A DNA stretch of 64,000 bases from Mustelus asterias. Its lineage: Eukaryota. The first letter of the stretch is position 1, and each line of letters begins with the position of its first letter. The notes beneath the pieces were generated by a model. That model was given only the letters and a program-made list of their open reading frames with translations, was not told where the DNA came from and did no database searches. Made by a program: the position numbers and the translations under genes. Location of the stretch: the NCBI RefSeq assembly GCF_964213995.1, contig NC_135808.1:22134001-22198000 (forward strand), written 5' to 3'. This document shows, in pieces, positions 4,864 through 58,500 of this stretch.

Positions 4864-4933
4864 TGAATTAGGTCTCACACTAAGAATGTTTGGTTGATAA
4901 TTTCTAACCTATTACCCATTATCTCTTTTCCAG

Positions 4934-5895
4934 TCAATTTACTGACAACTATGGTCCTGTCCCGGGGAAGGTGTGGCCTCTCCACCTGCACCACTCATTA
5001 TTTGTTCGCCATGGCCTTGTCGGATCTAATATTCAATTTCATTGAGGTGGTACTGCATCGGATCAGTTCATGTTATTTCCCAGGATCTTTTCTGGACATC
5101 ACCCCTGTGTGTCGTGTTGTCATTATCCTGCTTTATGCAGCTGGAAACTGCTCGACCTGGTTTACTGTCATGTTCTCCTTTGATCGCTTTGTGGCCATTT
5201 GTTGTCAGAAACTGAAAATAAAATATTGCACTGAGAAAACTGCAACTGTGGTTCTATCAACAATCTGCATCCTGAACTGGTTAAAATGCATTCCCTATTA
5301 CTTTGCATATCAACCTGAAGTGATAATTAACAATACTCCCTGGTTCTGCATAACGAATCCAAGCTATTTTACTGACCCAGCTTGGGTGACATTTGACTGG
5401 CTTGGTAAGATTTCAACTCCATTTCTCCCATATATTTTAATTCTGTTGTTCAATGCTCTGACAGTCAGATACATTTTAGTGACCAATCGTGTCCGCAAAG
5501 GACTGATGGGTCAGAACAAGGGGGACAATCACATTGACCCAGCGATGGAGAGCAGAAGGAATTCCATGATTTTACTCTTCACCATATCTGGCAGCTTCAT
5601 ACTTCTGTGGCTTTTATATGTGATCAACTTCTTATATTATAGAATTACAGGAACTTTTCCCGTAGACTACAATGATTCTTCATATATTTTTAAGGAAGTC
5701 GGATATATGCTGGCTGAATTAAACTGCTGTACAAACACTTTTATTTATGGGGTAACTCAATCCAAGTTCAGGGAGCAGTTCAAGAGTTTAGTGAAATATC
5801 CGGTTACATTAATTATTCAATTTATGAAAAAAGAAAGCAAAAGAGGGAAGCTCCTCCATACTCGGTCAATTGAATCGTACGAAGAATCATTTTGA
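4934..5895 (+). CDS. GPR139-like class A (rhodopsin-type) GPCR gene 1, coding exon 2; intact, 341 aa in total
   Basis: Acceptor tctcttttccag|TC at 4933/4934, with an open frame to TGA at 5893-5895. Seven hydrophobic segments; motifs LFAMALSDL (TM2), FSFDRFVAIC (TM3, DRF), PFLPYILILLFN (TM5), LLFTISGSFILLW (TM6), LNCCTNTFIYG (TM7) and SKFREQF (helix 8). The motif pattern resembles GPR139/GPR142. 64+962 nt = 342 codons. Confidence 0.88.
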
Positions 5896-11040: not shown

Positions 11041-11830
11041 TGTAAGAGAGATATGAGAGAGAGATCGCCACCTGAACCGGTCTCCTCCACCCCTGCGCCC
11101 ACTGTTTCCATGGACATCGGATCCCTGTCCCTTACCAACAATCATCCTGTGCCAGTCTATCCCATCTCGCCGCCGATTGTTCCCATCTGCAGAGATCCCT
11201 TTTTCGACCAAATTTTCCCCATCTGCTGAGTTTCCTCCCTACCTGATTGCCACTCCTGCAGAGTTCCATCTTCCTCTGCCAAACGCCAGCCCTGCAGAGT
11301 TCACCTCTTACACCCCACCCCCGCAACTGATAGCCACCTCTGCAGAAACCACTGCTTCATTCTGCTCATCGCTACCCCTGCAGAGTTCCCTCCTTCCCAT
11401 CCCAATCATCACAGCTGCTGATTCCCCTCCTTCGCATCTCAAAAATCATCCCTGCAGAATTCTCTCCCTCCCACCTCTACAGAACTCCCCTTCCATTCCT
11501 CCATCAAAGATCCAAGCCCACTCTGGCTGCACCCCCATTCAGGCCCAGCCATATTGGCACTGCCCTTTGCACAGTTATGGTGCCCATTGGGCAATGTCAT
11601 GGTGCCTGGTGGACACTGTGAGTGCGCCCGCTGGGCACAACCAGGGAACGTGTCACGGTGCCAGCCGAGCAGTGCTAAGCTGGTACCGGCCATCCGTGGC
11701 TCTCAGCAGCTGGTGTTTCAATCGCCTCTCATCCCCCCAAGCAAGGCTATCATACCTCGTCTCCCGCCATCTGTGATCCTCGCCAGTGAGAATTTCGACC
11801 AACATGCAGGTAAGGTCAATTGAACTTTGA
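10929..11830. mobile_element. GC-rich non-autonomous DNA-transposon-like repeat with (GA)n and internal CCCTGCAGAGTTC repeats
   Basis: Starts gggctgattctcc. Contains (GA)n at 11013-11040, repeated ctgcaga(g/a)ttc units at 11185-11490, and tggcac/gtgcca-rich tracts like those at 25400-25560 and 44420-44600. Confidence 0.45.
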
Positions 11831-15375: not shown

Positions 15376-16246
15376 TTAATTAAGTAACTGAAGAATTGAT
15401 ATAACCATATTTGTGATCAAATTCTTGAACTGCTCCCTGAATTTTGACTGAGTCACCCATAAATGAAAGCATTTGTGCAACAGTTTAAACTCAGCAACAA
15501 AACTGCAACTTCTGAAAAGATATATAAAGAATCGTTGTAATATTCAGGACTAATTCCTGACAGGTTATAATATATGAAATCGATAACATACAAAAGCCAC
15601 AGAAAAATGAAACTTCCAGATATGGTGAAGAGTAAAACCATAGACTTCCTTCTGCTTTCCATCTCTGGGTCATTGTGATTTTCTCAATTGCTCTTATATC
15701 TCAGGTCCTTACGGACTCGACTGGTCACTAAAATGTATCTGACTGTCAGAGCATTGCAAAGCAGAATTAAAATATATGGTAGCAATGGTGTTAAAATCTT
15801 ATCAAACCAGTCAAATCCCACCCATGCAGGATCAGTATGATAGCTTGGTTTTGCAAGTATCTCTCCAGGTTCAGATGTAAAGTAGAAAGGGACGTCTTTT
15901 AAACAGAGAAGAATGCAAGTTGGTGCTCGGACGATGATCGCAGTCCTCTCAGTACAGTCTTTAGCTTTCAGCTTCTGGCAACATATGGCCACAAATAGTC
16001 GAAGGAGAAAGACGGTGAACCAGACGGAACATTCAGTTGCTGCATAAAACAGGACAATGGTAACACTACACACAGGCGTAATGCTCAGGAAAGACACTGG
16101 GAAATAATATGAACATATCCGCCACAGTATGACCCCAGTGATAATGACCAGTAGATCCGCCGTTGCCATGGACACCAGGTATCGAGTTGTACACGTGGAG
16201 AGGCCACACTTACCCCGGGACAGGATCACAATCACGATTAAATTAA
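15376..16246 (-). pseudogene. GPR139-like gene 2, exon 2 (disabled)
   Basis: Acceptor ttccctcattacag| at 16247, then VNLIVIVILSRGKCGLSTCTTRYL... Lesions: the DRF motif is scrambled by offsetting indels (about 15995-16012), the ECL2 segment with the PWFC cysteine is deleted, there is an in-frame TGA at 15684-15686 (KSN*ENHNDPEMESRRKS), and a 1-nt deletion at IYG (about 15456). The natural end is ...ISILQLLN* at 15376. Confidence 0.9.
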
Positions 16247-16331
16247 CTGTAATGAGGGAAAAAGAGACCAGGAATTACTGAATGAAGAATTTTCATGTCG
16301 GGACACAGGTTAAAACTATTTTTAAAAAATC

Positions 16332-24801: not shown

Positions 24802-24821
24802 TTATTCATGGCATAGGGCCA

Positions 24822-26002
24822 GGGCTGAAATTCTCCCCCAAAAATTCTAAGTGTCAAATTCACGTGAAAGAAATGAAGTAATTCATGCCGTTTTTTTCAG
24901 TGGGAGTTCAGAGAAGAACCTCCCACACTCTGCGCAGTGCAGAGGCCACGAGCGGGAGTATCATTAAATTTCAGGCTGGGGCTGATTCCTGCTGGAGAGG
25001 CTGAAAGCAGCACGCTGAGCGGGTCTCTGCGCATGCGCCGAGCTGTCGGTGCCGCGATCGGCGCATGCGCAGTGGCTGCACATTGACGGCCCCCCGATTG
25101 CTGGCTGCCTCGAACGCTGGCCCCCCAACCATTCCCGCGGACAGCCCCAACCGCCCACTCTGAGCTCAGCACTATCTCCAGTCTCCCCCACCACGTGACT
25201 GTGAACCCCTGCAGTCCTGACCGCCCCCGCCCCCCTGCCCCAGCAGTCCCACCGCGCCCCCAGCTGAATCTCCCTTCTCCCAGCCCGCCCCGATCGCTTC
25301 TTCCCCCACCGATCCACATGCAACGTGGCAGCGGGCCCGCCATCCCCAAAGATCGCTCCTCGGTCCCGGCCCCCATAACACCCATCCGCCTATGTCCCGC
25401 CCCCGTATACTCCGCCCACTTGGCACTGCCCCATTCCCAATGGTCAGTGCCAAGGCGCCAGCTGGCCTTTGGCACCTTGCTTCTTGGGCAGTGCCGGGGC
25501 CCTTCCTGGCACTACCAGGGTGCCAATGCACAGCGGGCATTTCCCGCCCGCCAAACGAACCCTGGGGGCCCATTGTCCCCCAATTATTCCAGCGGAGTTG
25601 GGCCGCTAGCTCCCCGAAATTAAGGAGCTACTCTATACCTTGCGGGAGTGAAATACCCTGACCGTGGTGGGGGGTGCGGCGGGGGCGGGGGGGGGGGGGG
25701 CGGGAGTGGGGGCGGGTGGCGAGGGGTGGGAAGTTGATAATGGACACAGAGGCCTCAGTGCAGGGCCCGCTAATCACATTGAAATTACATTAATCCCCAC
25801 CACCGCACCCTCCCAACAAAACCCCATGCTGTTGCAGCTCCACGCCTATTTCCGGCGCAGAGCTGACCGCACCAGTAATCTGTCGCTGGGGGAGACGCTC
25901 TGGGCCGGCCGCCCAGCACGCATCGCACTAATCCAGCCTTGCTGGAATCTCCTGGCCTGATACGCTAATTTATTAGCGCAGTTGGATCGAAGTTTCGCCC
26001 CC
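24822..26002. mobile_element. GC/CpG-rich non-autonomous DNA transposon(s), Harbinger-MITE-like
   Basis: Starts gggctgaaatt and ends aagtttcgcccc (imperfect inverted ends). Internal palindromic motif tgcgcatgcgcc...ggcgcatgcgca at 25028-25071. May be two elements. Confidence 0.5.
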
Positions 26003-26554
26003 CAAATGATTCCAACCTCTCAAGTGGGAAAGCTAATTCGACTACGCTTCAGATAACGTGGATGGAAAGTAGGCACATGGAAGTCAATCCACGACGAAAT
26101 AGTTTTCGTCAAAGTATGTTGGCCTGAAGAAATGGTATGGGCCAAAAAAATCAAACCCCCTTGACAGCAAGGGGTTAAAAGCAAGGAGAAAGATGTCAAA
26201 CGGAAGCTTCTGATTCGAAAAGATTCGAAAATAAGATGACCAAACGTTCCGAATTCTAAAACCTCGCTCTGTGTCCAACGGCTAATCAGAATTAGTGCAG
26301 AATATCACTCTCGCCTTGATGAGCCCTGTGTTACGCAACAGTTGGTTCATTTTATTCTCGTCTTATTCTGCCATCTCCATCTGAATACAACAGTTTGGAT
26401 CCGGGCCTCCGGGCCCCGGTCGAACTCCGAACCAGGAACCATGCCCCAAAGGGACAGCAAATCTTTGGGACATGTCAGTGAGTTGCCCAGACTTATGTGT
26501 CACTACAATTGGAACACAAGTTGTCCAAGACTTCTTCATAAAAAATGCCAACAA

Positions 26555-26838
26555 GGCTGGCACCGTGGTTATCGCGGGTGTCTCAAAGCGCCAGGGACCG
26601 GGGTTCAATTCTGACCTCAGGATACTGAAGGTGTGCAGTTTGCCCTTTCTTCTGCGTTTGTTTCCTCAGGGGTCTCCGTTCTCCTCTGACAGTCCAAAGA
26701 TGTGCAGGTTAGGTGGATCAGCCATGCTAAATTACCCTTTAGTGTCAGGTGGTTTATAGGTATAGGGCCTGGGCGGGATTGTGGTCGGTTCGGACTTGAT
26801 GGGCTGAAAGGCCTCCTTCTGTACAGTCGGGATTCAAC
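26555..26838 (+). mobile_element. HE1 SINE whose tail is split by the hAT insertion (tail resumes at 31932-31949)
   Basis: ...ggcctccttctgtacagtcggGATTCAAC [hAT] GATTCAACgattctatga. Confidence 0.88.
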
Positions 26839-27601
26839 CAGGGGCGTCGCCAGGTTCTAAAGTTAGGGGGACCGAGCACATAAAAAAGGCGGCACGACGC
26901 ATACCAAATAATTTTAAATTCATTATACATTTTTATTTTGAATTTAAAATCAAAACATAATAAAAACGCATCTGTTATTTAATTATTTTACATTTTAAAC
27001 GTAAAATGAAAACAAAACGAAGCAATATGAAAAAGGTATGAAGCAACTACAACAGACTCTTTCGTCCAAGCTTCATTCCAGCAAAGTTATCTATTACTTT
27101 ATGAAAATCTACCACAGTAGCCAACTGTCTTTCAATGGAGACCAAAGCCAACCCAGACAATCTGTCCTCGCCCATTGTAGAACGAGGGTAGGACTTTATG
27201 TGTTGGAGCCGGCTAAAGGATCATTCCGCAACTGTGCTAGTTATTGGTAAGATCAGAAAAATGTGGTACAATGTGGACAGGTTAGGATAAATGGAACACA
27301 TGTCATTGGAGATCATGAATTTTAGTACATTGTTGATGGTCAGTTTCTTGACACTTGAATTTGCCTTACTGCTAGTGCTCATTATCTCTTTGTACAGGTC
27401 ATTGAATGAAATAAACTCTTGTACGATTTCAGTTTGACTGTCGATGACGCCTGAGTACGTATTTGCTAAAAATTCTAATTTTTTCACATTATCTGCATGT
27501 TCAAAATGCTTTGGATCGAAACCACTAAATTTAGAAGCCACATTTTTAAAATGGCCAAATCTTTTACTTGTGCTATTTAAAACAGAATCTAAGGACACTA
27601 A

Positions 27602-29329
27602 GGGCCCGATTTTACCAAACCGGGCGCGAAGTCGCGGTAAGGTCGGGCGTCGGGCCTTCAACGCGATCTGCACCCGAATCAGAGCAGATCGCGGCTTTAC
27701 TGACACCCGATTCGGGCGCGGATCCGGCCCATGCCCGAATCGGGTGGCCCGACGATTTAAATGCATTTGCATGCATTTAAATCGACTTAATGAACTGCGA
27801 GCCCAACTCTACCACCAAATCCCACTTGACCACCGCGCGGCCCAATCCGGATCCGCGCTTTTAGCGACCTGCAGAATAAAGGTCCGAAGTGGATTTCTAT
27901 TCCCCAGGGGAATCTCCAAAGCCCATCCTCCCCGACCATCCTTCGCAGACACCCATCCCCCCTCCCCCGGCCCCCCAGCTAACCACCCCGGCAGACCCCG
28001 CCCCCCCCCCTCCCCGGGATCAGACACTCCTGGGAGGCAGGACCCCCGGAAGACCTCCTCCTGGGATCGGACCCCCCTGGGAGGGAGGCCCCCCCCCCCC
28101 CCCCCCGGGATCAGACCCCCCTGGGAGGCAGACCCCTCTCGGCAGAGCACACCACAACCTACCTCGATAACTGGCCTCCCTCCACCATCCTTCCGACCTC
28201 CAGTCCTTTGAGAGCCTGCAGCACCTTCCTGGCCTTCCATTGGTGTCCGACAGAGGGCGCGGGGGGGGGGGGGGATGGGCTCAGATGGATCTCTGGTTGG
28301 TCGGGCAGGTGGGTGGGGCGGGGGGAGAATGGACTTGGGTGAATCTTGCAAACTGAAAATAATGTAGCATCGTCTTTGTGCTGCCTAATTATCTATGGGA
28401 AAGGTAATTAAACTACAGTATCCTTGTGAGCAATTAGTGACCTAAATAATACATTTGTGATATGGAACTGGATTGTTGATGCTCAAATGTTCAGAGTCCT
28501 GTGGTGAACTTGGAAGATTTATCCCCGTGGTGGAACTTGTTTGGAAATAAGATTCAAGGAGATTACTACATCTTGTTTTCATCTGAACATTGCACACAAT
28601 TAGTCGAATTCCCTTTGGAAGACAATGTCAAAATTGTAATCGCAGGAACTAAAAACCTGACAGTCAAAGAATTGGGAAAATATTTCAAAATATATATCCC
28701 CCATCCATATTTTGAAATATTTTCCCAAATTTGTGACTGTCAGGTTTTTAGTTCCTGCAATGATAATTTTGACATTATCATCCAAAGCGAATTCCTCTAA
28801 TTCTGTGCAATGTTCAGATGAAAACAAGATTTAGTAATCTCCTTGAATCTTATTTCCAACCAAGTTTCACCACGGGGACAATTCTTCCAAGTTCATCACA
28901 GGACCCTGAACATTTCAGCATGAACAATCCAGTTACAGATCACAAATGTATTATACAGGTCACTAATTGCTCACTAGGACACTGTAGTTACTTACCTTTC
29001 CCATAGATAATTAGGCAGCACAAGGACGATGCTACATTATTTGCAGTTTGCAAGATTCTCCCAAGTCCATCCTCCCCCCCCCCCCCCCCACTCTGCTCTC
29101 TCAGCTGTTTTTTCTTTCGCGCCAAAGCACGCTGCTTCAGATTTTTTATCGAACTGCTCATGCGAAGTTCAGAGCTCCGAACGGTCCAGCAGCGCTATGC
29201 CCCGCCCACAGTGTGGATCGGACTGGAGCCGGCAAAACACGTATGGGCGTGCTGGAAAGAGGATTCTCGGCTCGGATCTATTTGACGCTCAGATTCGGCA
29301 CTTAGACTCAAAATGGTAAAATCAGGTCC
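27602..29329. mobile_element. Non-autonomous PIF/Harbinger-type element nested in the hAT transposase
   Basis: TAA TSD (27599-27601 and 29330-29332). 16-bp TIRs GGGCCCGATTTTACCA and GGACCTGATTTTACCA (14/16). Removing it plus one TAA restores the frame FIVESYLVSLDSVLN. Confidence 0.92.
28310..29090. repeat. Long inverted repeat/hairpin: about 365-bp AT-rich arms with G/C clamps and a 13-nt loop
   Basis: 28329..28693 is the reverse complement of 28707..29070, with about 31 substitutions and 1 indel (about 91%, manual alignment). Loop ATATCCCCCATCC. Confidence 0.97.
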
Positions 29330-32300
29330 TAAGTAGGATTCAACAATGAAGTTTCTTTAGAGTCAGTGTGAAAGATTTGATATAATTGCGTTGTTCTTCT
29401 TTTAGTACTGAAAGACGAGGTAAACTGCCAGAAAAAAAAATGTATAGGCACTTTGTAGAGTTCCAAAAAACAACTTGGTTTGAATATTGGAGCTTACTGC
29501 ATCAATTAGAACCAAATTTAAATTATGTGCAGAGCAGTGCATAAAGAGTGCATTTGGAGCAACTTCCCTAATCTTTGTTTGGAGACCAGATATTTCACCT
29601 GACATAGTGCTTGCTCCATCGTAAGACTGACCGTAACACATAGTTATTGACAGCCCTAAGTTTTCGATTGCTGGAAGAAGAATGTTGAAAAAATCTTCAG
29701 CCCTTGCTCCAGGTAATTCGCTGAATTGTATAAATCGTTCCACTGCATCACCGTTTACTGTTACATATCGCAAGGATAAAGAAAATTGATCAGTTCTGCC
29801 GATATCAATAGTAGAGTCAACAATTATTGCAAAGTACTTAACCACCTTGATTTCAGCTATTATCTTTGATAGAACCTGGGCTGATAAGGACTGTATCAGA
29901 TCATTTTGTATGTCAGGGCTGAGATATGTTGCATTTCCATCACTCAGTGATAAATGATGCTCCAGTAATGTATCACTTTTGGCAAACACATTAATAAGTT
30001 CCAAAACATTGCCTTCATTCGTACTTGGGGAACCTAAACCTTGATACTCGCGATGACCACGGAAGGCCAATCCCTGTTTTCCCAAATAGAGAACTGCATC
30101 TATAATATGGGTTAGAATCATCCTATTTTTCTCTATCTCTTTCCTTTCCGCCGTTACAAGGCCAACCAGGACAGCTCTGTCGTTGAACAAACGAAAAGTG
30201 GTAAGGAAAAGATTTTTCTCCGCTTTTTTGTGACTTTCACTTTTTTCATGTTTTATTATTTTGTGCGTACCTTTAACAAAAATCTTGCAACCAGTTTTTG
30301 GATCACTCCAACCATCCGACCGATTTGCAAAAAGCCAACAAGCAAACCAAAGCACAGTGTTTGCTCTTCGTGAGTAAACCAGCTAGTGCCTATCCATTTC
30401 ACAACCAATTTTAACTTGTTTCTTGTACCAAGTTGCACTGAAATGACGTCCAGCTTCATCTTTTGGAAAACTGTCAAAATTATCTTTAAGTACTGGCTGA
30501 CAAGGGCCAAACTCCAGAAGAGCAAGTACTAGATCAGGTGTTACAGGTGTTTCACAAAACAGGTGTGGATCTGTTGGATATTCCGTATGTGTGTCAATGA
30601 TTGCACATAGTCTTACTGTTTCATCTTCGTCCTCTGGGCGATAGTCTGCTGAAGTGGTCACAGCTCCACTTCCACCACCTGTGCAGCCGCAGCAGCCAGG
30701 GTGCAGTCAAAAGCCCCTAGGATGAAAGTCGGTAACAGCAAGTCTTTAGAGGGTTCCACCTCAGATGCAACCACAACGGCCTGTGCACCGTCTCCATCTC
30801 CTGGGCTGAAGGTAGGTAGCAAGTCTTCAGAGGATTCCATCTCTGGCGCAGCGAACGTCGTGTGCTTGCCGAATGAAAAGTAGGCGTCCAATCTCTGACA
30901 TTTTGACGAATCTTTTTCTCGATTTGCAACTTCTTTCATCTTCTTTCTGTCCCACCCAGATAGTTTATTCTTCTTAGTGTTTTTCTCCATGGCATTCCAT
31001 ATCAGAAAAAAATCTATGATAGTTTTTCAAGGCAATCTTAACAATAGACATATAACACCGTCATAATAAAACGAAAAAGCAACTTAAACTTGCCTTTGGA
31101 ATATTTATGCCGTATATTAATTTGAACAACCCCGTAATCCATATCGCCGTTCTCACTTTGCTCCCGCTGAGCATGCGTGGCAGGGCGTGTGCACTTGTAC
31201 CCTCCAGAAGCTGGCAATCATGGCAATAATGACAATCATGTCGCTTCCCTAAACTCATTAATTCATTGGCTATGCTCAAGACACAGCTAGCTCAAAATAA
31301 CCAGTGCTTAAAATGGACAAAGCAATCAAATGTTCATGCAAGCGGAGAGATACAAGGTGTCAGATTCTTGTTCAGCTTTGGAGTAGTTAATTCTAATGAT
31401 ACACAGTCTTGAATGAATGGTGACTAAAACTATAAATTACGCGCCGAATATTTTCACTAAACTATTCCTGCGATGTCATATTTTGTTCTTCATCTTTGCT
31501 ATGTATTTAAATGAGCTGGTTTATTTAAATTAAAGCTGCCAATGTTGGACTCTGTAGTGGTTTAAATTCTTCAAGTGATAATCACCAAATCTATTTAATC
31601 ACCCAATCTCGGCTGGTGATGTCCGTCGGCGAGGGATGCTTGGTCTCGACTTCCCGTTCGTCGCCGTGGCTGCATATTTATGTCCTTCGTGGCCTCTGCA
31701 ATTATCCTCGTGATTGCATGCTCTCTCGGGCGATTGCATGCCTTCCTCGCTGCCTGAAGTCCCCGCATCCGTATCGCATCCTGGGATTGCAGTACACGGA
31801 TCGAGGACTTCAGATCTCGGGAAGAGATCTGAGGGGCCGTGAGGAACACCCCGTTGAAAAGGCGCCACTTTTGAAGAATGTGCTCAGGGGCAGCGGTCGT
31901 TCCCCCTGCTCCCTCTCTAGCTTCGCCACTGGATTCAACGATTCTATGAAATGCCACATGCTTCTTCCCCAGTGGAGTCAGATCACATTCCCGTGATTCT
32001 TTTTAAACCCCGAGGACTGCCTGTTTCTGCAGCCACCTTAACACGACATTAAAAAAAATATTTCCTCTAATGCAAGTACCCAGAGTGGCTCACTTCTGCG
32101 TGGAAGAGTTGGAAAAGTGTCACCCGCACGGATCTATGGTGGGTTATCACTCCACTATTTGGAGAGGTGGAGCTGGGTCCAGAAAGGTGCATGTTCAGAG
32201 TTTGCTGCATTCCGGATCGTAATCGCCAATGAGAGACTCGCACAGTACCAACACACTGCAGTCACGCTGAAATGGATTTGTCTGAAGGTAAATGTACAGC

Positions 32301-32860
32301 ATTCATCGAACGCTCAGTAATGACCTGCTCCGTGGCAACTTTGCAAAGAATTTCCAAAAGCCCATATTAACTATATGCACCGCATTTCCACGTCACCTTG
32401 TCTTTTACCTCCATAGAACATGCTACGAGCTTTGACAGGCACAATCTTCTCTCACCTTTCGAAATAAGTGTTTCCTATCGATTTATTGCTCTTATTTCTT
32501 GTTAACATGGATTGCGGGTAATTTCATTCAGATAAGCATCCACATTTTCGGCACTATAAGTGGATTTGTTTTGAAATCAGGACTGTATTGCTGGAGGTAG
32601 GAAGTGGGAAAAGTCATTCCATTTAGTGTCGAAATTGCAGGGGAGAGAGTATTGCAGTAACAAATCATAACGCCCAAACCAGCCCCAATTTTCTACTGAC
32701 CTAATCTTCTCATCTTTTTCGTTTTTCTCATAACTGGCTTAATCTCAATTACGTTTTTCTTTCATTTTTCTGTTCTATTTTTCTCCTTCTTCAATCTGTT
32801 CACTGCGATTTTTCTTTCCCCCTTTCCCCATGTTGTTACTCAGCCTTTATTCTCCAGTTG

Positions 32861-43345: not shown

Positions 43346-43954
43346 CTTCTTCAAAACGCGCAGGAGGCAGCACCCCCATCCCACGATCAGACACTCTCAG
43401 GGGATTGGGCCAACTGCACCCTGGGATCAGACAATATTTTTATTCAACTCACCACGTACCAGGAACAAATACTCTGCCCAGAATTGGACACCTGGATTGC
43501 CCAGATCCAGAGCTGCTCAGATGGAGAATATGAGATACCTACTTTGGACATGCTCTCGCGTCCTCCCCATCTGTGTGGAAGCCAAACCTGTTCATCAGCA
43601 TGACTGTAGGTTTGAAAAAGTGCCAATGAAAAGTGACAAATGCTGTGGAATTCAGCCCCCATCGTGCCCCCTACCTCTGCAACATATACCCACACCTCCC
43701 TTAGTCCCCTATTACATTGAGACAGCCTGGCGGTAAAGCACAACCCTCAAACTGCTGTAAGTATCATTTCTCGTAAAAACAGGGTTATGTAATCCGCCAT
43801 GTCAGAAGTCACAGATAGGTGAAGGAAAATGTGAGGAAAAGTTTACCTTTGTCACAGTCACACATAATGTCATTCGTGACTTTGGTGTGCCGGGGTTGGA
43901 AACCACATTTGGAAGGATTGAGACATTTTCACCCCAAAATTGTAAGTGACCAAT

Positions 43955-44890
43955 GGGCGGGAAAATGGGAGGTTATCACGTTTGATTTTTGGCGAGATTG
44001 GTTAAATGAATTGACGGAACTCTGTGCAGCACAGAGGCCATCAGGCGATTCACACCAGTTGGAGGGAAGGAGCGGGGGGGGGGGGGGGGGGGCGTTGGGT
44101 GGTTGTTGTGGTGGGGGGGAGGGGGCGGGGGGTGCTGCGGGGCGGAGCCTAGTCCCACTCGAGAGTCCGGAATCAGTCTGCTTCGTGGGCGATTGCGCAA
44201 GCAATTGGGAGATCGGTTGACATGCAATCCCCCAATCTGACGCTTCCCAATCGCGTGCTCCAAAACCCCCAGATATCATCAGCCCGACTCCCTTCACCAC
44301 ATCAGCCCCCACCTCCAAATTCCGAACCCCTCTTTCGTTCCCACCTACTTCCGCCCCCAGCCTGCTCTGAGCCCTGGGGTCCCCAGCCCCGAGGTCCCCA
44401 GCCCCGAGGGTTCTCCGCTTGACACTGCCCAGCGCATGGTTGGCACTGCCAGTGTGCCAGCCTGGACGTGCCAGGCTGCCCCTTGGGCAGTGCCAGTTTG
44501 CCAGGCTGGCACTGTCTTGTTTCCAGGCTGGCAGTGCCAGACTACCCTTGGGCACTCCCAGTTTCTCAGACTGGCACCGCCAGGGTCGCCGGCTGGCTGT
44601 GCCCAAGGTCCACTGACCCCCATTCCTTACCTCTCGGGGGGCCTCAATGGCCTGCGGTCCCACGAATGAGGCCATCACGCCAGGTCCAGATTGCTGGGGA
44701 CAATCTGTGATCCCCGATCGTGTGGACCTCCACGGGCGTGGTCGGAATCATAAGTGAGCCTCGTCAATATCGTCCCGGGCTTGCTAAATAGTTTAAATTA
44801 GGATATAAATATTTAAATCAGCCTCCTGCTGTGCCCCTTTGCGCAGGAAGATCAGGACCAGCGTGCAGTTGTTGGCCTGTTTTTGGCCTC
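43955..44890. mobile_element. GC-rich non-autonomous DNA-transposon-like repeat
   Basis: Same tggcac/gtgccag-rich interior, poly-G tracts and atttaaat motif as the other GC-rich MITE-like elements; termini not resolved. Confidence 0.45.
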
Positions 44891-45429
44891 CTGCTTAAAT
44901 GTCAGGCCCTTGGAGTTGCAGATTCGATGGGGATGAACTTGGTGGTTGCAATGCACTCAAGTACGTCGTGGAGTAAAGGGAGGGAGATGGAACGGTAATT
45001 TACAAAGGCGGTGGGTTTAGGGCCAGATTTAAAGATGGGGGAGTGGTTAGAGCAGAGTCCAATGAGTGAGGGAGGGAGCCGTCGGAGAGAGAACAATGAA
45101 CTATTTCAGCCACCAAGGCAAACCAAGAAGGAAGCTGCCGCTGTTTACCTGAGCAGCCACCCATGTGCGAAGCTATCGAATTCTGTCCTAGTTCGGATCC
45201 CTCACCCTGGTTGCGAGCCACCCACCAGAGCACCTGGGCTGGACACGTCCAGACACATGCAATCCCCACCAATGGTGGAGGGAGAGAGAGAGAAACAGCA
45301 GTGAAAAATACACGGGAAATATAAGACTCAATAAAATGTATCAAGCCAAAAAAATCAATTCACGGAAATAAACATTTGCAACCACTTGAAAATTTATGAT
45401 TAGTTTTATCAAATTGTGCTTGTGTTTCT

Positions 45430-46069: not shown

Positions 46070-46237
46070 ACGATGTGGAGATACCGGCGTTGGACTGGGG
46101 TTATATCACAGTAAGAATTCTCACATCACTAGGTCAAAGTGCAACTGGTTTATTTGGAATCACGAGCTTTCGCAGCGCTGCTCCTTCATCAGGTGTGTGA
46201 TGAAGGAACAGTGCTCCGAAACTCGTGATTCCAAATA
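46070..46237 (-). mobile_element. Penelope-type terminal repeat with an inverted partial copy (hammerhead-like motif)
   Basis: 46151..46191 and 46198..46237 are inverted copies. The minus strand reads cac-CTGATGA-a-ggagc-agc-gctgc-GAAA-gc-TC-gtg. Confidence 0.7.
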
Positions 46238-54519: not shown

Positions 54520-55368
54520 GTCATTGAATAATGGATGTAAATGGCTATTTCAGTGCACTCTTGAACTGCTCCCTCAACTTGAGATGAGTTAACCCAGAAG
54601 TAAATCCAACAATATAACTTCAGAAGTATAACACGAACATCTGCAAGGAAGATTACTGGAACACACATGGTGAACTCCTCTGATAATATAATCTAAGAAA
54701 TGTATAACATACAATCACCACGAAGTGTAAAGCTGCCAGATATGCTGAAGAGTAATATCATAGACTTCCTCCGACTCTCCATCTCTGGGTCACTGCCATT
54801 CTCTCCATTGTTCTGACCTCTCAGTCCCCTGCAGGCTCGACGGGTGACCAGAATGTACCTGACTGTCAGAGCGTTGAGCAACAGAACTGAAATATATGGG
54901 GTCAATGGTTTTAAGATTTTATCAAACAAGCATAAGCCACCCATCCAGGATCAGTACAATAACTTGGCTTTTCAATGCAGAACCAGGGAACATTTCAATT
55001 ATCTCTCCAGGTTCAAATCTAAAGTACATGGGAATATCTTTTAAACAAAGCAGAATGCAAGTTGTTGATAGAACCACGGCTGCAGTTTTCTCAGTACAAT
55101 AATTTCTAACAGCAAGTGACCATACAAATCGATCAAATGAGAACATGACAGTGAATTTAATCAGAACATCCTGCAGCCGCATGAACACACACGGGGGTGA
55201 TTTCTCGGAAAGATGCTGCAAAATGATAAAAAAAAACAATGCGACACGGTATGACTGCAGTGATAATGACCAGTAGACGCACTGTTGCCATAATGGCCAA
55301 GTAACCAGTGGTGCAGGTGGAGAAGCCACATTTTCCCCGGGACAGGACCGAAATCGCCATTACATTAA
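54520..55368 (-). pseudogene. GPR139-like gene 3, exon 2 (heavily decayed; exon 1 not found in this window)
   Basis: Acceptor tttctcttccag| at 55369. VNVMAISVLSRGKCGFSTCTT, FTVMFSFDRFV, YCTEKTAAVVLSTTCILLCLKDIP, LLLNALTVRYILVT, DPEMESRRKSMILLFSISGSF and KLREQFKS are spread over several frames, with stops. Confidence 0.88.
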
Positions 55369-55579
55369 CTGGAAGAGAAAGAAGAAACTATATTGATCAG
55401 TCTCCATGCCCGATGGTTGAAGTCGAATCTGGTATTAAGGTGTTAATAATTACCTTACGTATCTGTCTCCGTCCACTTTTGGTTACGTGGGTGATGGGGA
55501 AGGGTGAAGCAGCCCAAACTGTTCAACATTTTAATTAGGTTGGCAGGCAGTAATATAATCTATCCCACAGATATAGACA

Positions 55580-58500
55580 CAGAGAAACATAGGAGATAGG
55601 AGCAGGAGGAGGCCATTTGACCCTTTGAGCCTGCTCCGCCATTCATTAAGATCATGGCTGAATAATGGATGTAAATGGATATTTCAGTGCACTCTTGAAC
55701 TGCTCCCTAAACTTGAGATGAGTTAACCCATAAGTAAATCCAACAATATAACTTCAGAAGCATAACACGAACATCTGCAAGGCAGATTACTGGAACACAC
55801 ATGGTGAACTCCTCTGATAATATAATCTAAGAAATGTATAACATACAATCACCACAAAGTGTAAAGCTGCCAGATATGCTCAATAGCCTAATCCTGCTTT
55901 TTCCCCATAAACTTTGATCCCATTTACCCCAAGTGCTATATCCAGCCGCCTCTTGGATGCATTCAATGTTTTGGCATCAACAGCTTCCTGCGCTAATGAA
56001 TTCCATGGGCTCATCATTCTTTGGGTGAAGAAATGTCTCCTCACCTCCTTCCTAATTCGTCTACACTGAATCCTCAGACTGTGACCCCTGGTTCTGGATT
56101 CCCCCACCGTCGGGAATATCCTCCCTGCATCTATCATGTCTTGTCCTGTTAGAATTTTCTAAGTCTCTATGAGATCCCCTCTCATTCGTCTCAACACCAG
56201 CGAAAATACTCCTAACCTAATCAATCTCTCCTCATATATCAGTCCCGCCATCCCCAGAATCAGCCTGGTAAACCTTCGCTGCACTCCCTCGAGAGCAAGA
56301 ACATCCTTCCTCTGAAAAGGAGACCAAAACTGCACACAGTCCTCTACGTACGGCCTCACCAAGGTCCTGTATAGTTCCAAAAACACATCCCTGCTTTTGT
56401 ACTCGAAACCTCTCGCAATGAAGGTCAACATACTATTGGCGTCTTTACTGCCAGCTGCACCTGCATGCCTACCTTCAGTGACTGGTGCACAAAGACACCC
56501 AGGTCCTGCTGCATACTCCCGTCTCCTAATTTACAGCCATTTAGCCAGTAATCTGCCTTCTTGTTTTTGCTTCCAAAGTGAATAACCTCACGTGTATCCA
56601 AATTATACTGTTTCTGCCATTTATTATCCCACTCACCCAACCTGTCCAGATCATTCTGAAGTATCTGTGCATCCTCGTCACAGTTCACCCTCCCACCCAA
56701 CTTGGTATCATCTGCAAATTTTGAGATGTTACATTTTGTTTCCTTTTCCAATTCATTAATATATATTGTGAATATCTGGGGTCCCAGCATCGACCCCTGT
56801 GACACCCCAATTGTTACTGCCTGCCAATTTGAAAAACACGCATTAATTCCTACTCCTTGTTTACTCTCTGCCAACCAGTTTTCTTTCCATCTCAATACAC
56901 TTCGTCCAAAGCCATACACTTTAATTTTGCATGATAATCTCTTGGGCAAGACTTCGTCAAACGCTTTCTGAAAGTCCAAATATACCAAATCTACTGGTTC
57001 TCCCTTGTCAACTCTACTCGTTACATCTTCAAAAGATTCCAACATATTTGTCAAGTATGATTTCTCCTTCATAAATCCGTGCAGACTCTGTCTGATCCTG
57101 CCACTGCTTTCGAATGCTCTGCTATAAAATCCTTGAGAATGAAATCGAGAAGTTTCCCCACCAACGATGTTAAGCTTACTGGTCTATAATTCCCTGCTTT
57201 CTCTCTACCTCCCTTTTGGAATATTGGAGTGACATTCGCTACCCTTCAACCTGCAGGGACTGTTCCAGAGTCTAATGAATCTTGGAAGATGACCACACAT
57301 GCATCCACCATTTCTAGAGCCGCTTCCTTAAGTACTCTGGGGTGTAGATTATCAGGCCCTGGGGATTTGTCCGCCTTCAATCCCATCAACTTTCCCAGTA
57401 CCATTTCTCTACTAATATTGATCACCCTCAGTTCTTCCCTCTCATTAAATCTTGCATTCTCCAACATTTCTGGCATCTGATTTGTGTCCTCTTTTGTGAA
57501 GACAGAACCAAAGAATGTATTCAGTTGCTCGGCCATTTCTTTGTTCCCTATTATACATTCCCCTCTTTCTGTCTGTAGGGGACCTAGATTTGTCTTCACC
57601 AACCTCTTTCTCTTCACATACCTATAAAAACTCTTAGTGTCAGTCTTTATGTTCCCTGCAAGCTTACTTTCGTACTGTATTTTCCCCTTCTTAATCAATC
57701 TCTTGGTCCGACTTTGCTAAATTCTAAACTGCTCCCAATCCTCAGACCTATTGTTTTTCTTGGCCAATCTGTATGCTTCTTCCTTAGATGGGATACTCTC
57801 TCTAATTCCCTTGGTAAGCCATGGATTGACCCTCTTACGCATTTTGCTTTTGTGCCAGACAGGAATAAGCAGTTGCTGCAGTTCCTTGAATGTTTGCCAT
57901 TGCCTATCCACTGTCATCCCTTTAAGTAACTCTCCCCAATCTGTCAAGGCCAACTCATGCCTCGTATCCTCATAGTTTCGTTTCGAAAGATTCAGCACCC
58001 TATTCTCCAAATCAACTCCTTCACTCTCCATCTTGATAAAAAATTTCATCATGTTATAATCGCTCATCTCAAAGGGGTCTTGTGCAGCTCGGTTGGCAAT
58101 GAGTCCCTTCTCATTACACAGCTCCCAGTCTACGATGGCCTGCTCTCTAGTTGGTTCCTCCACATATTGGCCAAGAAAACTATCCCGTACATACTCCAAT
58201 AATTCCGCCTCTACGGCACTGTGGCTAACTTGATTTGCCCAATCTTTGTGCAGATTAATATCAGCCATGATCACCGATATTCCCTTATCACATGCATCAC
58301 TAATTTCATGTTTAATGCCATTCTCAACATCACCACTGCAGTTTGGGGGTCTATACATGACACCCACTAATGTTTTTTGCCTCTTGGTATTTCTCAACTC
58401 TACCCATACAGACATTGTCAGAGCCAATATCCTTACTCACTATTTTGTTAATTTCCTCTTTCACCAGCAGTGCCACTCCACCACCTTTTCCTTTATGCCT

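Follow-up and report, generated by a model that had tools for sequence, protein, structure and literature searches.

How does a non-autonomous DNA transposon come to carry a long hairpin in its interior, and do the mismatches between the two arms of that hairpin record ordinary decay or a feature maintained by the element family? The question is posed by a locus in a 64,000-nt stretch of Mustelus asterias DNA (contig NC_135808.1, positions 22,134,001 to 22,198,000; hereafter the window, whose own numbering is used throughout). A preliminary description had portrayed the hairpin as cargo carried by a Harbinger-type MITE with 16-bp terminal inverted repeats (TIRs), and had suggested that its transversion-rich mismatches may be built in rather than acquired by decay.

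The window contains tRNA-type SINEs, CR1-like reverse transcriptase remnants, and single-exon seven-transmembrane receptor genes. The latter are rhodopsin-family genes and pseudogenes (4867-5895, 15687-16274, 54523-55378, and 55645-55886) that are 70-74% alike, and their cluster includes a 95% local duplicate of about 240 bp. Three GC-rich elements with G-run/C-run interiors (11400-11800, 24817-25900, and 43950-44900) resemble non-autonomous DNA transposons and share just low-complexity runs with the element at 27602-29329 that bears the hairpin. Between one of them and a SINE lies a CpG-rich, partly open stretch (25900-26550) with no Pfam match in six frames, which we take to be somewhat like the start of a retroelement gag. 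The hairpin-bearing element itself occupies the following setting.

26556..26830, plus strand: SINE with a hAT element in its tail, which resumes at 31940
26831-26838 and 31932-31939: 8-bp target-site duplication of the hAT, identical copies
26839..31931, minus strand: host hAT, decayed, with a ZMYM1-like transposase; TIRs matching at 11/16
27599..27601: left target-site duplication TAA, a Leu codon on the minus strand; the hAT match resumes at residue 804 of the turtle protein P0010
27602..29329: non-autonomous PIF/Harbinger-type element, 1,728 bp, with TAA on both sides and TIRs matching at 14/16
27602..27617, plus strand: left TIR
27618..27901: left subterminal region, CpG-rich (o/e 1.38), with repeated CCGAATC/CGGATC-type words
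27704-27746 and 27753-27784: two short palindromes in the left subterminal region
27910..27933, minus strand: backbone copy of the outer 24-nt motif of the hairpin arms, 21/24 identical to 29054-29077
27998..28136, plus strand: three C-rich tandem units of 44-47 nt, with 2, 2, and 4 differences between their 25-position cores
28251..28281, plus strand: second unit of a G-run plus ATGGGCT, inverted relative to 29064-29095 and 84% identical over 32 aligned columns
29314..29329, minus strand: right TIR
29330..29332: right target-site duplication TAA, the same Leu codon, closing the IVESYL stretch that matches P0010

The order of insertion can be read from the host transposase, a remnant that has two stops, changes frame twice, and has lost about 165 codons, and that is 81% identical to P0010 over its central part. 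It is interrupted by the element at a duplicated Leu codon: the stretch that P0010 reads as IVESYLVSLDSV is split in the window into IVESYL on one flank of the element and LVSLDSV on the opposite flank. The duplicated codon, compared with P0010, thus establishes that the TAA duplication is real. The 165-codon deletion lies at about 29350, some 20 nt from the Harbinger insertion. The remnant is 81-82% identical to turtle ZMYM1-like proteins that have an extra domain, PF01352, presumably KRAB; such identity across distant vertebrates suggests horizontal transfer of the hAT, with domestication in turtles.

TWA target sites and TIRs that start with G are typical of PIF/Harbinger elements, and the element has both a 3-bp TWA duplication and short TIRs starting with G. 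Of three candidates in the window that are flanked by TWA it scores best, with 2 mismatches in 14 where the others have 4 each, and it occurs there as a single copy. Its TIRs, said earlier to be 16 bp long, do span 16 positions but match at only 14, and both differences are transitions, one of them at a CpG. With regard to the extended palindromic target preference of PIF/Harbinger elements, the 6 nt on either side of the TAA pair form an inverted match at only 2 of 6 positions, a figure from a single site. PIF/Harbinger elements generate 3-bp duplications and their MITEs measure 100-500 bp, according to excerpts of one source (PMC2836001); at 1,728 bp the present element is longer than a strict MITE, and we therefore call it a non-autonomous element of PIF/Harbinger type, retaining the first half of the earlier label and discarding the second.

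The repeated words of the left subterminal region could be binding sites for mobilizing proteins. On the minus strand at 28162-28250, an exon-like stretch of about 84 nt starts after a C-run and ends at a donor-like site (7/9), beyond which come G-rich repeats; it could be left over from the gene structure of the parent element. An autonomous partner would be expected to encode a transposase and a Myb-like protein; scanned against Pfam, four flank frames and 12 arm frames of the element gave no relevant match. To look for further copies, four right-end frames were combined into one mixed profile. With simulated copies diverged by as much as 15%, it retrieved 160 of 160; of 125 real candidates it scored none, a weak test in that it needs called open reading frames of 37-179 aa and so depends on chance gene calls. 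Elsewhere in the window, a broken reading at 32050-32350 has no Pfam match and presumably resembles the Harbinger Myb/SANT-like protein.

Within this element, the nearly 800-nt hairpin is real, and it consists of the following parts.

28311..28328, plus strand: left side of the clamp, an interrupted G-run
28329..28693, plus strand: left arm, 365 nt, 36% GC, CpG o/e 0.35
28694..28706: loop, 13 nt, closed by a self-complementary ATAT
28707..29070, minus strand: right arm, 364 nt, 36% GC, CpG o/e 0.26
29071..29089, plus strand: right side of the clamp, a C-run that includes 16 pure C

The arms and loop lie exactly where the preliminary description had placed them, and the hairpin is, as it held, separate from the TIRs; the poly-G/poly-C clamp that it reported is a pure run on the right side and an interrupted one on the left. 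Recounting likewise returned its figures unchanged. The arms differ by 31 substitutions and 1 indel (at 28410). Transitions account for 11 of the substitutions and transversions for 20, and of the transversions 12 are same-base oppositions (T:T 4, C:C 4, A:A 3, G:G 1). The transitions divide evenly by strand, with five G:U-compatible pairs on the plus strand and six on the minus strand, and the mismatches are scattered along the whole stem (14 and 17 in its outer and inner halves) with no clustering relative to 20,000 random placements. Perfect helices of 32, 28, 27, 25, and 22 bp result, and the innermost 22 pairs, beside the loop, are perfect.

The predicted RNA folds of the hairpin reach -567 kcal/mol on the plus strand and -588 kcal/mol on the minus strand (z -55 and -65), a stability matched by none of 20 shuffles per strand. 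Only one other close-spaced inverted repeat of at least 40 nt occurs in the 64 kb, an 88-nt repeat at 46151-46237 (84%) that is unrelated to the hairpin. A scan of the window against Rfam gave no match at the gathering threshold; the 15 matches below it are weak and mostly to miRNA hairpin models, the best at 94.7 versus 211 bits.

The element outside the arms is 65% GC on the left flank and 55% on the right, compared with 36% in the arms. No local shuffle out of 500 reached the 21/24 match between the outer-arm motif and its backbone copy, and a motif of a G-run plus ATGGRCT, to which the clamp belongs, occurs four times in the element. Because the outer 24 nt of the arms recur in the backbone, the clamp is part of the Harbinger-type element. 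The hairpin is flanked by no target-site duplication longer than 2 nt at its ends. The right arm lies, on the minus strand, between direct repeats of GGATGG, which are only six bases long and sit in G-rich surroundings.

Inside these outer 24 nt or so, the arm looks like captured host-type DNA. By dinucleotide distance it is closest to three host stretches (0.06-0.10), followed by the coding regions of the hAT and CR1 (0.12-0.13), and farthest from the element's own ends (0.23-0.31); this host-like composition supports the probable capture that had been proposed. The likeliest source is non-coding animal DNA, and viral DNA may be another. In the window, BLASTN and TBLASTN returned chance matches only (best outside the hairpin, E 0.23 and 0.36); Pfam (12 frames) and the PDB sequences returned none, and the Atlas no usable match. 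Phages gave one chance 29-nt match, plasmids none, and prokaryotic genomes no exact 26-mer. Deep protein searches covered two of the six arm frames, the other four being compared with Pfam and the window. In the second most open frame, none of 94 candidates scored. Neither the library of representative proteins nor the 90% protein set yielded a source.

Other leads on the origin of the arm were set aside. A phmmer search with a 71-codon open stretch against 1.84 billion representatives produced nine matches, all artefacts assembled from summed 2-9-bit pieces in repeat proteins (eight of the nine CARDB). The arm is not the missing 165 codons of the hAT (best match E 2.4). The frame starting at 28411 on the plus strand has conservative changes (p 0.03, the best of six frames) and 81 codons free of a shared stop (p about 0.03), a weak hint of coding that was not accepted, as just 4 of 23 changed codons are synonymous and five involve stops.

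Whether the mismatches could have arisen by decay depends on what decay looks like in this DNA. The claim that they are built in had rested on the premise that decay should be rich in transitions, and two controls drawn from the window bear on it. Among ten repeat pairs of at least 79% identity, largely non-redundant and selected from 72 listed, non-CpG transitions number 209 of 411, compared with 10 of 28 in the hairpin (Fisher p 0.17); a four-class test of the spectrum gives p 0.40. Compared with all sites of the ten pairs, the arms give p 0.06, which leans against an ordinary spectrum. Twelve SINE copies, each compared with the column majority, show 23 transitions, 20 A<>T changes, and 20 other transversions at non-CpG A/T sites; at G/C sites, unlike A/T sites, the same classes stand at 44:12:15, a clear transition bias. 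Matched for composition, the SINEs predict 47% transitions for the arm, or 41% from singletons, and the observed 10 of 28 departs from neither (p 0.15 and 0.35). Nor do the same-base oppositions stand out: the class gives p 0.15 or 0.25 against the SINE expectation, and the excess of 12/20 over a control fraction of 0.48 is not significant. The single indel per 31 substitutions is within control rates (p 0.09-0.39), and the scarcity of synonymous changes, 4 among 23 altered codons in the most open frame, likewise fits neutral decay.

The five pairs above 85% identity give a different answer, with 90 transitions of 141 changes and a hairpin that is transition-poor by comparison (p 0.005, or 0.04 without CpG transitions). 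Of these five youngest pairs, three were formed from just three CpG-rich SINE copies and another is coding sequence, and we weigh this control less for that reason; the arms may still have a mild transition deficit. In a shark pedigree study, all four validated de novo mutations were transitions (PMC10587355), which likewise counts against an ordinary spectrum. In this window, A/T-rich, CpG-poor DNA decays with no strong transition bias, and the premise of transition-rich decay therefore fails. The mismatch spectrum is ordinary for decay in the window, and the argument that the mismatches are built in is left unsupported.

The age of the arms leaves little slack. Of 129 columns that are invariant in ten relatives, the hAT copy departs at 15, while intact relatives, each left out in turn, show 2-11 differences in 131-140 columns. 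By simulated conversion this corresponds to about 3.4% nucleotide decay (1.3-6.4% at the median background; points of 1.6-4.4% over the background range), and the two stops in the hAT fit 2-4%. Divergence between the arms is 8.5% (5.9-11.9%), or about 4.5% per arm after correction, so the hAT's point age of 3.4% falls short of what each arm needs, which counts against decay in place. The ranges do overlap, on condition that the element with its hairpin followed the hAT closely in time. Divergence elsewhere within the element supports such an age (TIRs at 2/16, tandem cores at 2-4/25); the two short backbone palindromes (14 and 14 pairs) and the target-site duplications (3/3 and 8/8) are unchanged, which again counts against decay in place. 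The CpG-rich Harbinger ends do not date the element, since the ends of the decayed hAT are CpG-rich as well (o/e 0.98 and 1.75). Decay is thus sufficient for the mismatches, and some of them could have been inherited.

Survival poses a related difficulty. In yeast, Alu repeats spaced by 12 bp rearrange 15-fold less at 94% identity and 58-fold less at 86% than at 100%, according to excerpts of one study (PMC10164571). Given this fragility of perfect repeats, the long survival of a perfect hairpin is strained, and surviving hairpins would be biased toward diverged arms. No central deletion is evident in the present hairpin, though a perfect close-spaced repeat should be fragile.

On balance, we consider it slightly better than an even bet that the hairpin is a passenger produced by one fold-back duplication of captured filler and then left to neutral decay. 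Next to its right end, a non-autonomous PIF/Harbinger-type element would have held some 345 bp of filler, AT-rich and host-like. A single replication or gap-repair accident would then have duplicated this filler in inverted orientation: the new strand, folded back and primed at the ATAT beside the 13-nt loop, would have copied the filler backward until it met the G-run, and returned to the element by way of the G/C-run motif already repeated in the backbone, both putative microhomologies. The arms would have been identical or nearly so at the start, around the time that this copy entered the hAT, and the 31 mismatches would be neutral substitutions accumulated since. The hairpin would be passive and probably lack a function, mobility resting on the TIRs and subterminal regions; if transcribed, it would behave as inverted-repeat double-stranded RNA and not as a dedicated small-RNA gene. 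Comparable junctions are described in excerpted sources: human inverted duplications have a single-copy spacer of at least 766 bp and 2-8 bp of inverted microhomology (PMC3907307), and single-copy Pack-TIRs stem mostly from gap filling, with microhomology in 67.6% of cases (PMC8277862).

Other histories would relieve some of these strains. The hairpin may have arisen and gathered most of its mismatches in a master element, to be carried since as a tolerated passenger in many copies, as in Tol2. We regard this as unlikely, though it deserves to be taken seriously: the tight timing, the intact short palindromes and target-site duplications, and the CpG-rich ends all favor it, as do the 302/303-bp internal inverted repeats of Tol2, whose copies are highly homogeneous in the available part of a preprint (bioRxiv 10.64898/2026.01.12.699174). 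Its support from CpG retention is offset by the hAT ends described above, which make that retention no clock, and translated right-end copies numbered 0 of 125 candidates, in the weak test noted earlier. An origin from two templates, in which already diverged single-arm copies or paralogous host loci were joined head to head by one repair event, would turn the 8.5% into divergence between copies, and both the timing strain and the problem of a surviving perfect palindrome would vanish. Where the arms differ in their outer 24 nt, at two sites, it is moreover the right arm that agrees with the backbone motif, and this arm holds the better splice donor and an open frame; in another frame, however, stops fall in the right arm while the left arm is open. 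The shared end base of the two arms, the 13-nt loop next to it, and the 22 innermost pairs without a mismatch are most simply explained by self-priming, and we find the two-template origin improbable.

Insertion of an independent, Angel-like palindromic MITE into the G/C-rich interior is a route with a precedent, since such elements are typically palindromes of this size from end to end and the Tol2 repeats arose in this way in the excerpted accounts. Here the hairpin ends show no TTAA, TA, TWA, or 8-bp duplication, and a scan of boundaries at least 9/12 complementary gave only six two-base matches (CA, GC, TG, AT). The arm ends are also built from a motif of the host backbone, and no free copy exists in the 64 kb, which together make this route quite doubtful. 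Fold-back chimeric reads give near-zero-spacer inverted repeats, and the geometry of the hairpin would suit such an assembly artefact; 31 substitutions and one indel are unlike read error, however, and the window contains no N, so that this explanation is scarcely credible. The fold-back duplication with subsequent decay leaves the question of whether its product could nonetheless be expressed, for which the right end of the element provides candidate signals.

28991..29161, minus strand: ATG frame of 57 codons that leads from the right end across the G-run and into the right arm
29115..29126, plus strand: putative E2F site, an exact match to the double E2F site of the DHFR promoter and the only copy in the window
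29202-29207: GC box in the CpG-rich right end

The same E2F motif is present in an E2F1 probe from the DHFR promoter, as given in excerpts of PMC3205837. The 57-codon frame ends just past a 9/9 splice-donor match at 28995, of which the window has five over its two strands together; its peptide has no homolog among the proteins searched and no Pfam match, and the frame may be a chance product. With these motifs, noticed post hoc, a minus-strand transcript starting in the right end is plausible. Changes biased toward G:U pairing on the transcribed strand are a feature of hairpin-RNA loci, and the stem shows no such bias, at 5 versus 6; the other expected feature, a long duplex-forming fold-back, is present in the predicted fold.

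A selected hairpin-RNA module would combine these elements into a right-end-driven minus-strand transcript whose 365-bp duplex yields siRNAs against the source locus of the arm. The very stable predicted fold with its five perfect helices of 22-32 bp would suit such a module, as would the exact E2F site, the GC box, and the ATG frame ending at a consensus donor; long inverted repeats are known to yield siRNAs in mouse oocytes and Drosophila, in excerpts of PMC8728187. Yet neither strand shows a G:U bias or any other sign of selection on pairing, the window and protein searches found no target, promoter motifs found post hoc are expected in transposon ends, and splicing at the donor would delete most of the stem. 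We consider the module very improbable. Equally speculative, and offered with very little confidence, is a family-wide Harbinger module in which the end with the E2F site drives fold-back RNA of captured host sequence and so spreads siRNA precursors through the genome of a cartilaginous fish, with a cargo that perhaps varies by subfamily within one and the same slot.

A long inverted repeat within a vertebrate DNA transposon is already known, and by analogy the nearest precedent is the internal inverted repeats of Tol2, a medaka hAT. These 302/303-bp repeats lie within about 0.7 kb and derive from an Angel MITE with a TTAA duplication, as stated in the available portion of a preprint (bioRxiv 10.64898/2026.01.12.699174), with which a figure legend in PMC8151067 agrees. 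Tol2 resembles the present element, as far as these sources describe it, in being a vertebrate DNA transposon with internal inverted repeats of about 300 bp apart from its short, imperfect TIRs. It differs in being an autonomous hAT with TTAA around the repeat block, whereas here a non-autonomous Harbinger-type element holds arms with a 13-nt spacer and no target-site duplication. What is new relative to Tol2 is the host superfamily, the near-zero spacer, and the absent target-site duplication.

Other systems share individual features, again as excerpted. Pack-TIRs (PMC8277862), mostly single-copy and made by gap filling, are likewise TIR elements with host-like filler and low-complexity microhomology at the joins. 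They are defined by a parental locus, which the window, protein, phage, plasmid, and prokaryotic searches did not reveal here, and the filler in the present case is doubled into a palindrome; the main text of PMC8277862 mentions neither Harbinger nor shark. Non-autonomous PIF/Harbinger elements and Tourist-like MITEs, such as mPing and Harbinger3N_DR (PMC2836001), have the 3-bp duplication, short TIRs, and non-coding character in common with this element, and lack its large internal fold-back; its 1,728 bp also exceed the 100-500 bp of MITEs. Hairpin-RNA loci in LIRBase (PMC8728187) also form a long imperfect duplex, which would be a substrate for dsRNA enzymes if transcribed, but the arms here are below that resource's 400-nt cut-off; it counts 4,590,178 long inverted repeats in 208 vertebrate genomes, mostly with long spacers and with no requirement for transcription. 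No report of such a hairpin in a shark Harbinger element was found in the literature searched, partly as excerpts and with subscription journals and repeat catalogues mostly outside the search.

The locus is a clean example of four nested events, namely, a SINE, a hAT, a Harbinger derivative, and a fold-back. Its transversion-rich spectrum is no sign of design here, the transition bias at A/T sites being nearly absent from the repeats of the window. If the whole family carried the hairpin and it were expressed, it would provide a vertebrate case of a long hairpin RNA borne by a transposon, and one could test directly whether the capture of host DNA can let an element create trans-acting silencers. 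Should it be family-wide but silent, it would form a second case like the internal repeats of Tol2, and the lifetime of a near-palindrome would become measurable in a slow-mutating germ line.
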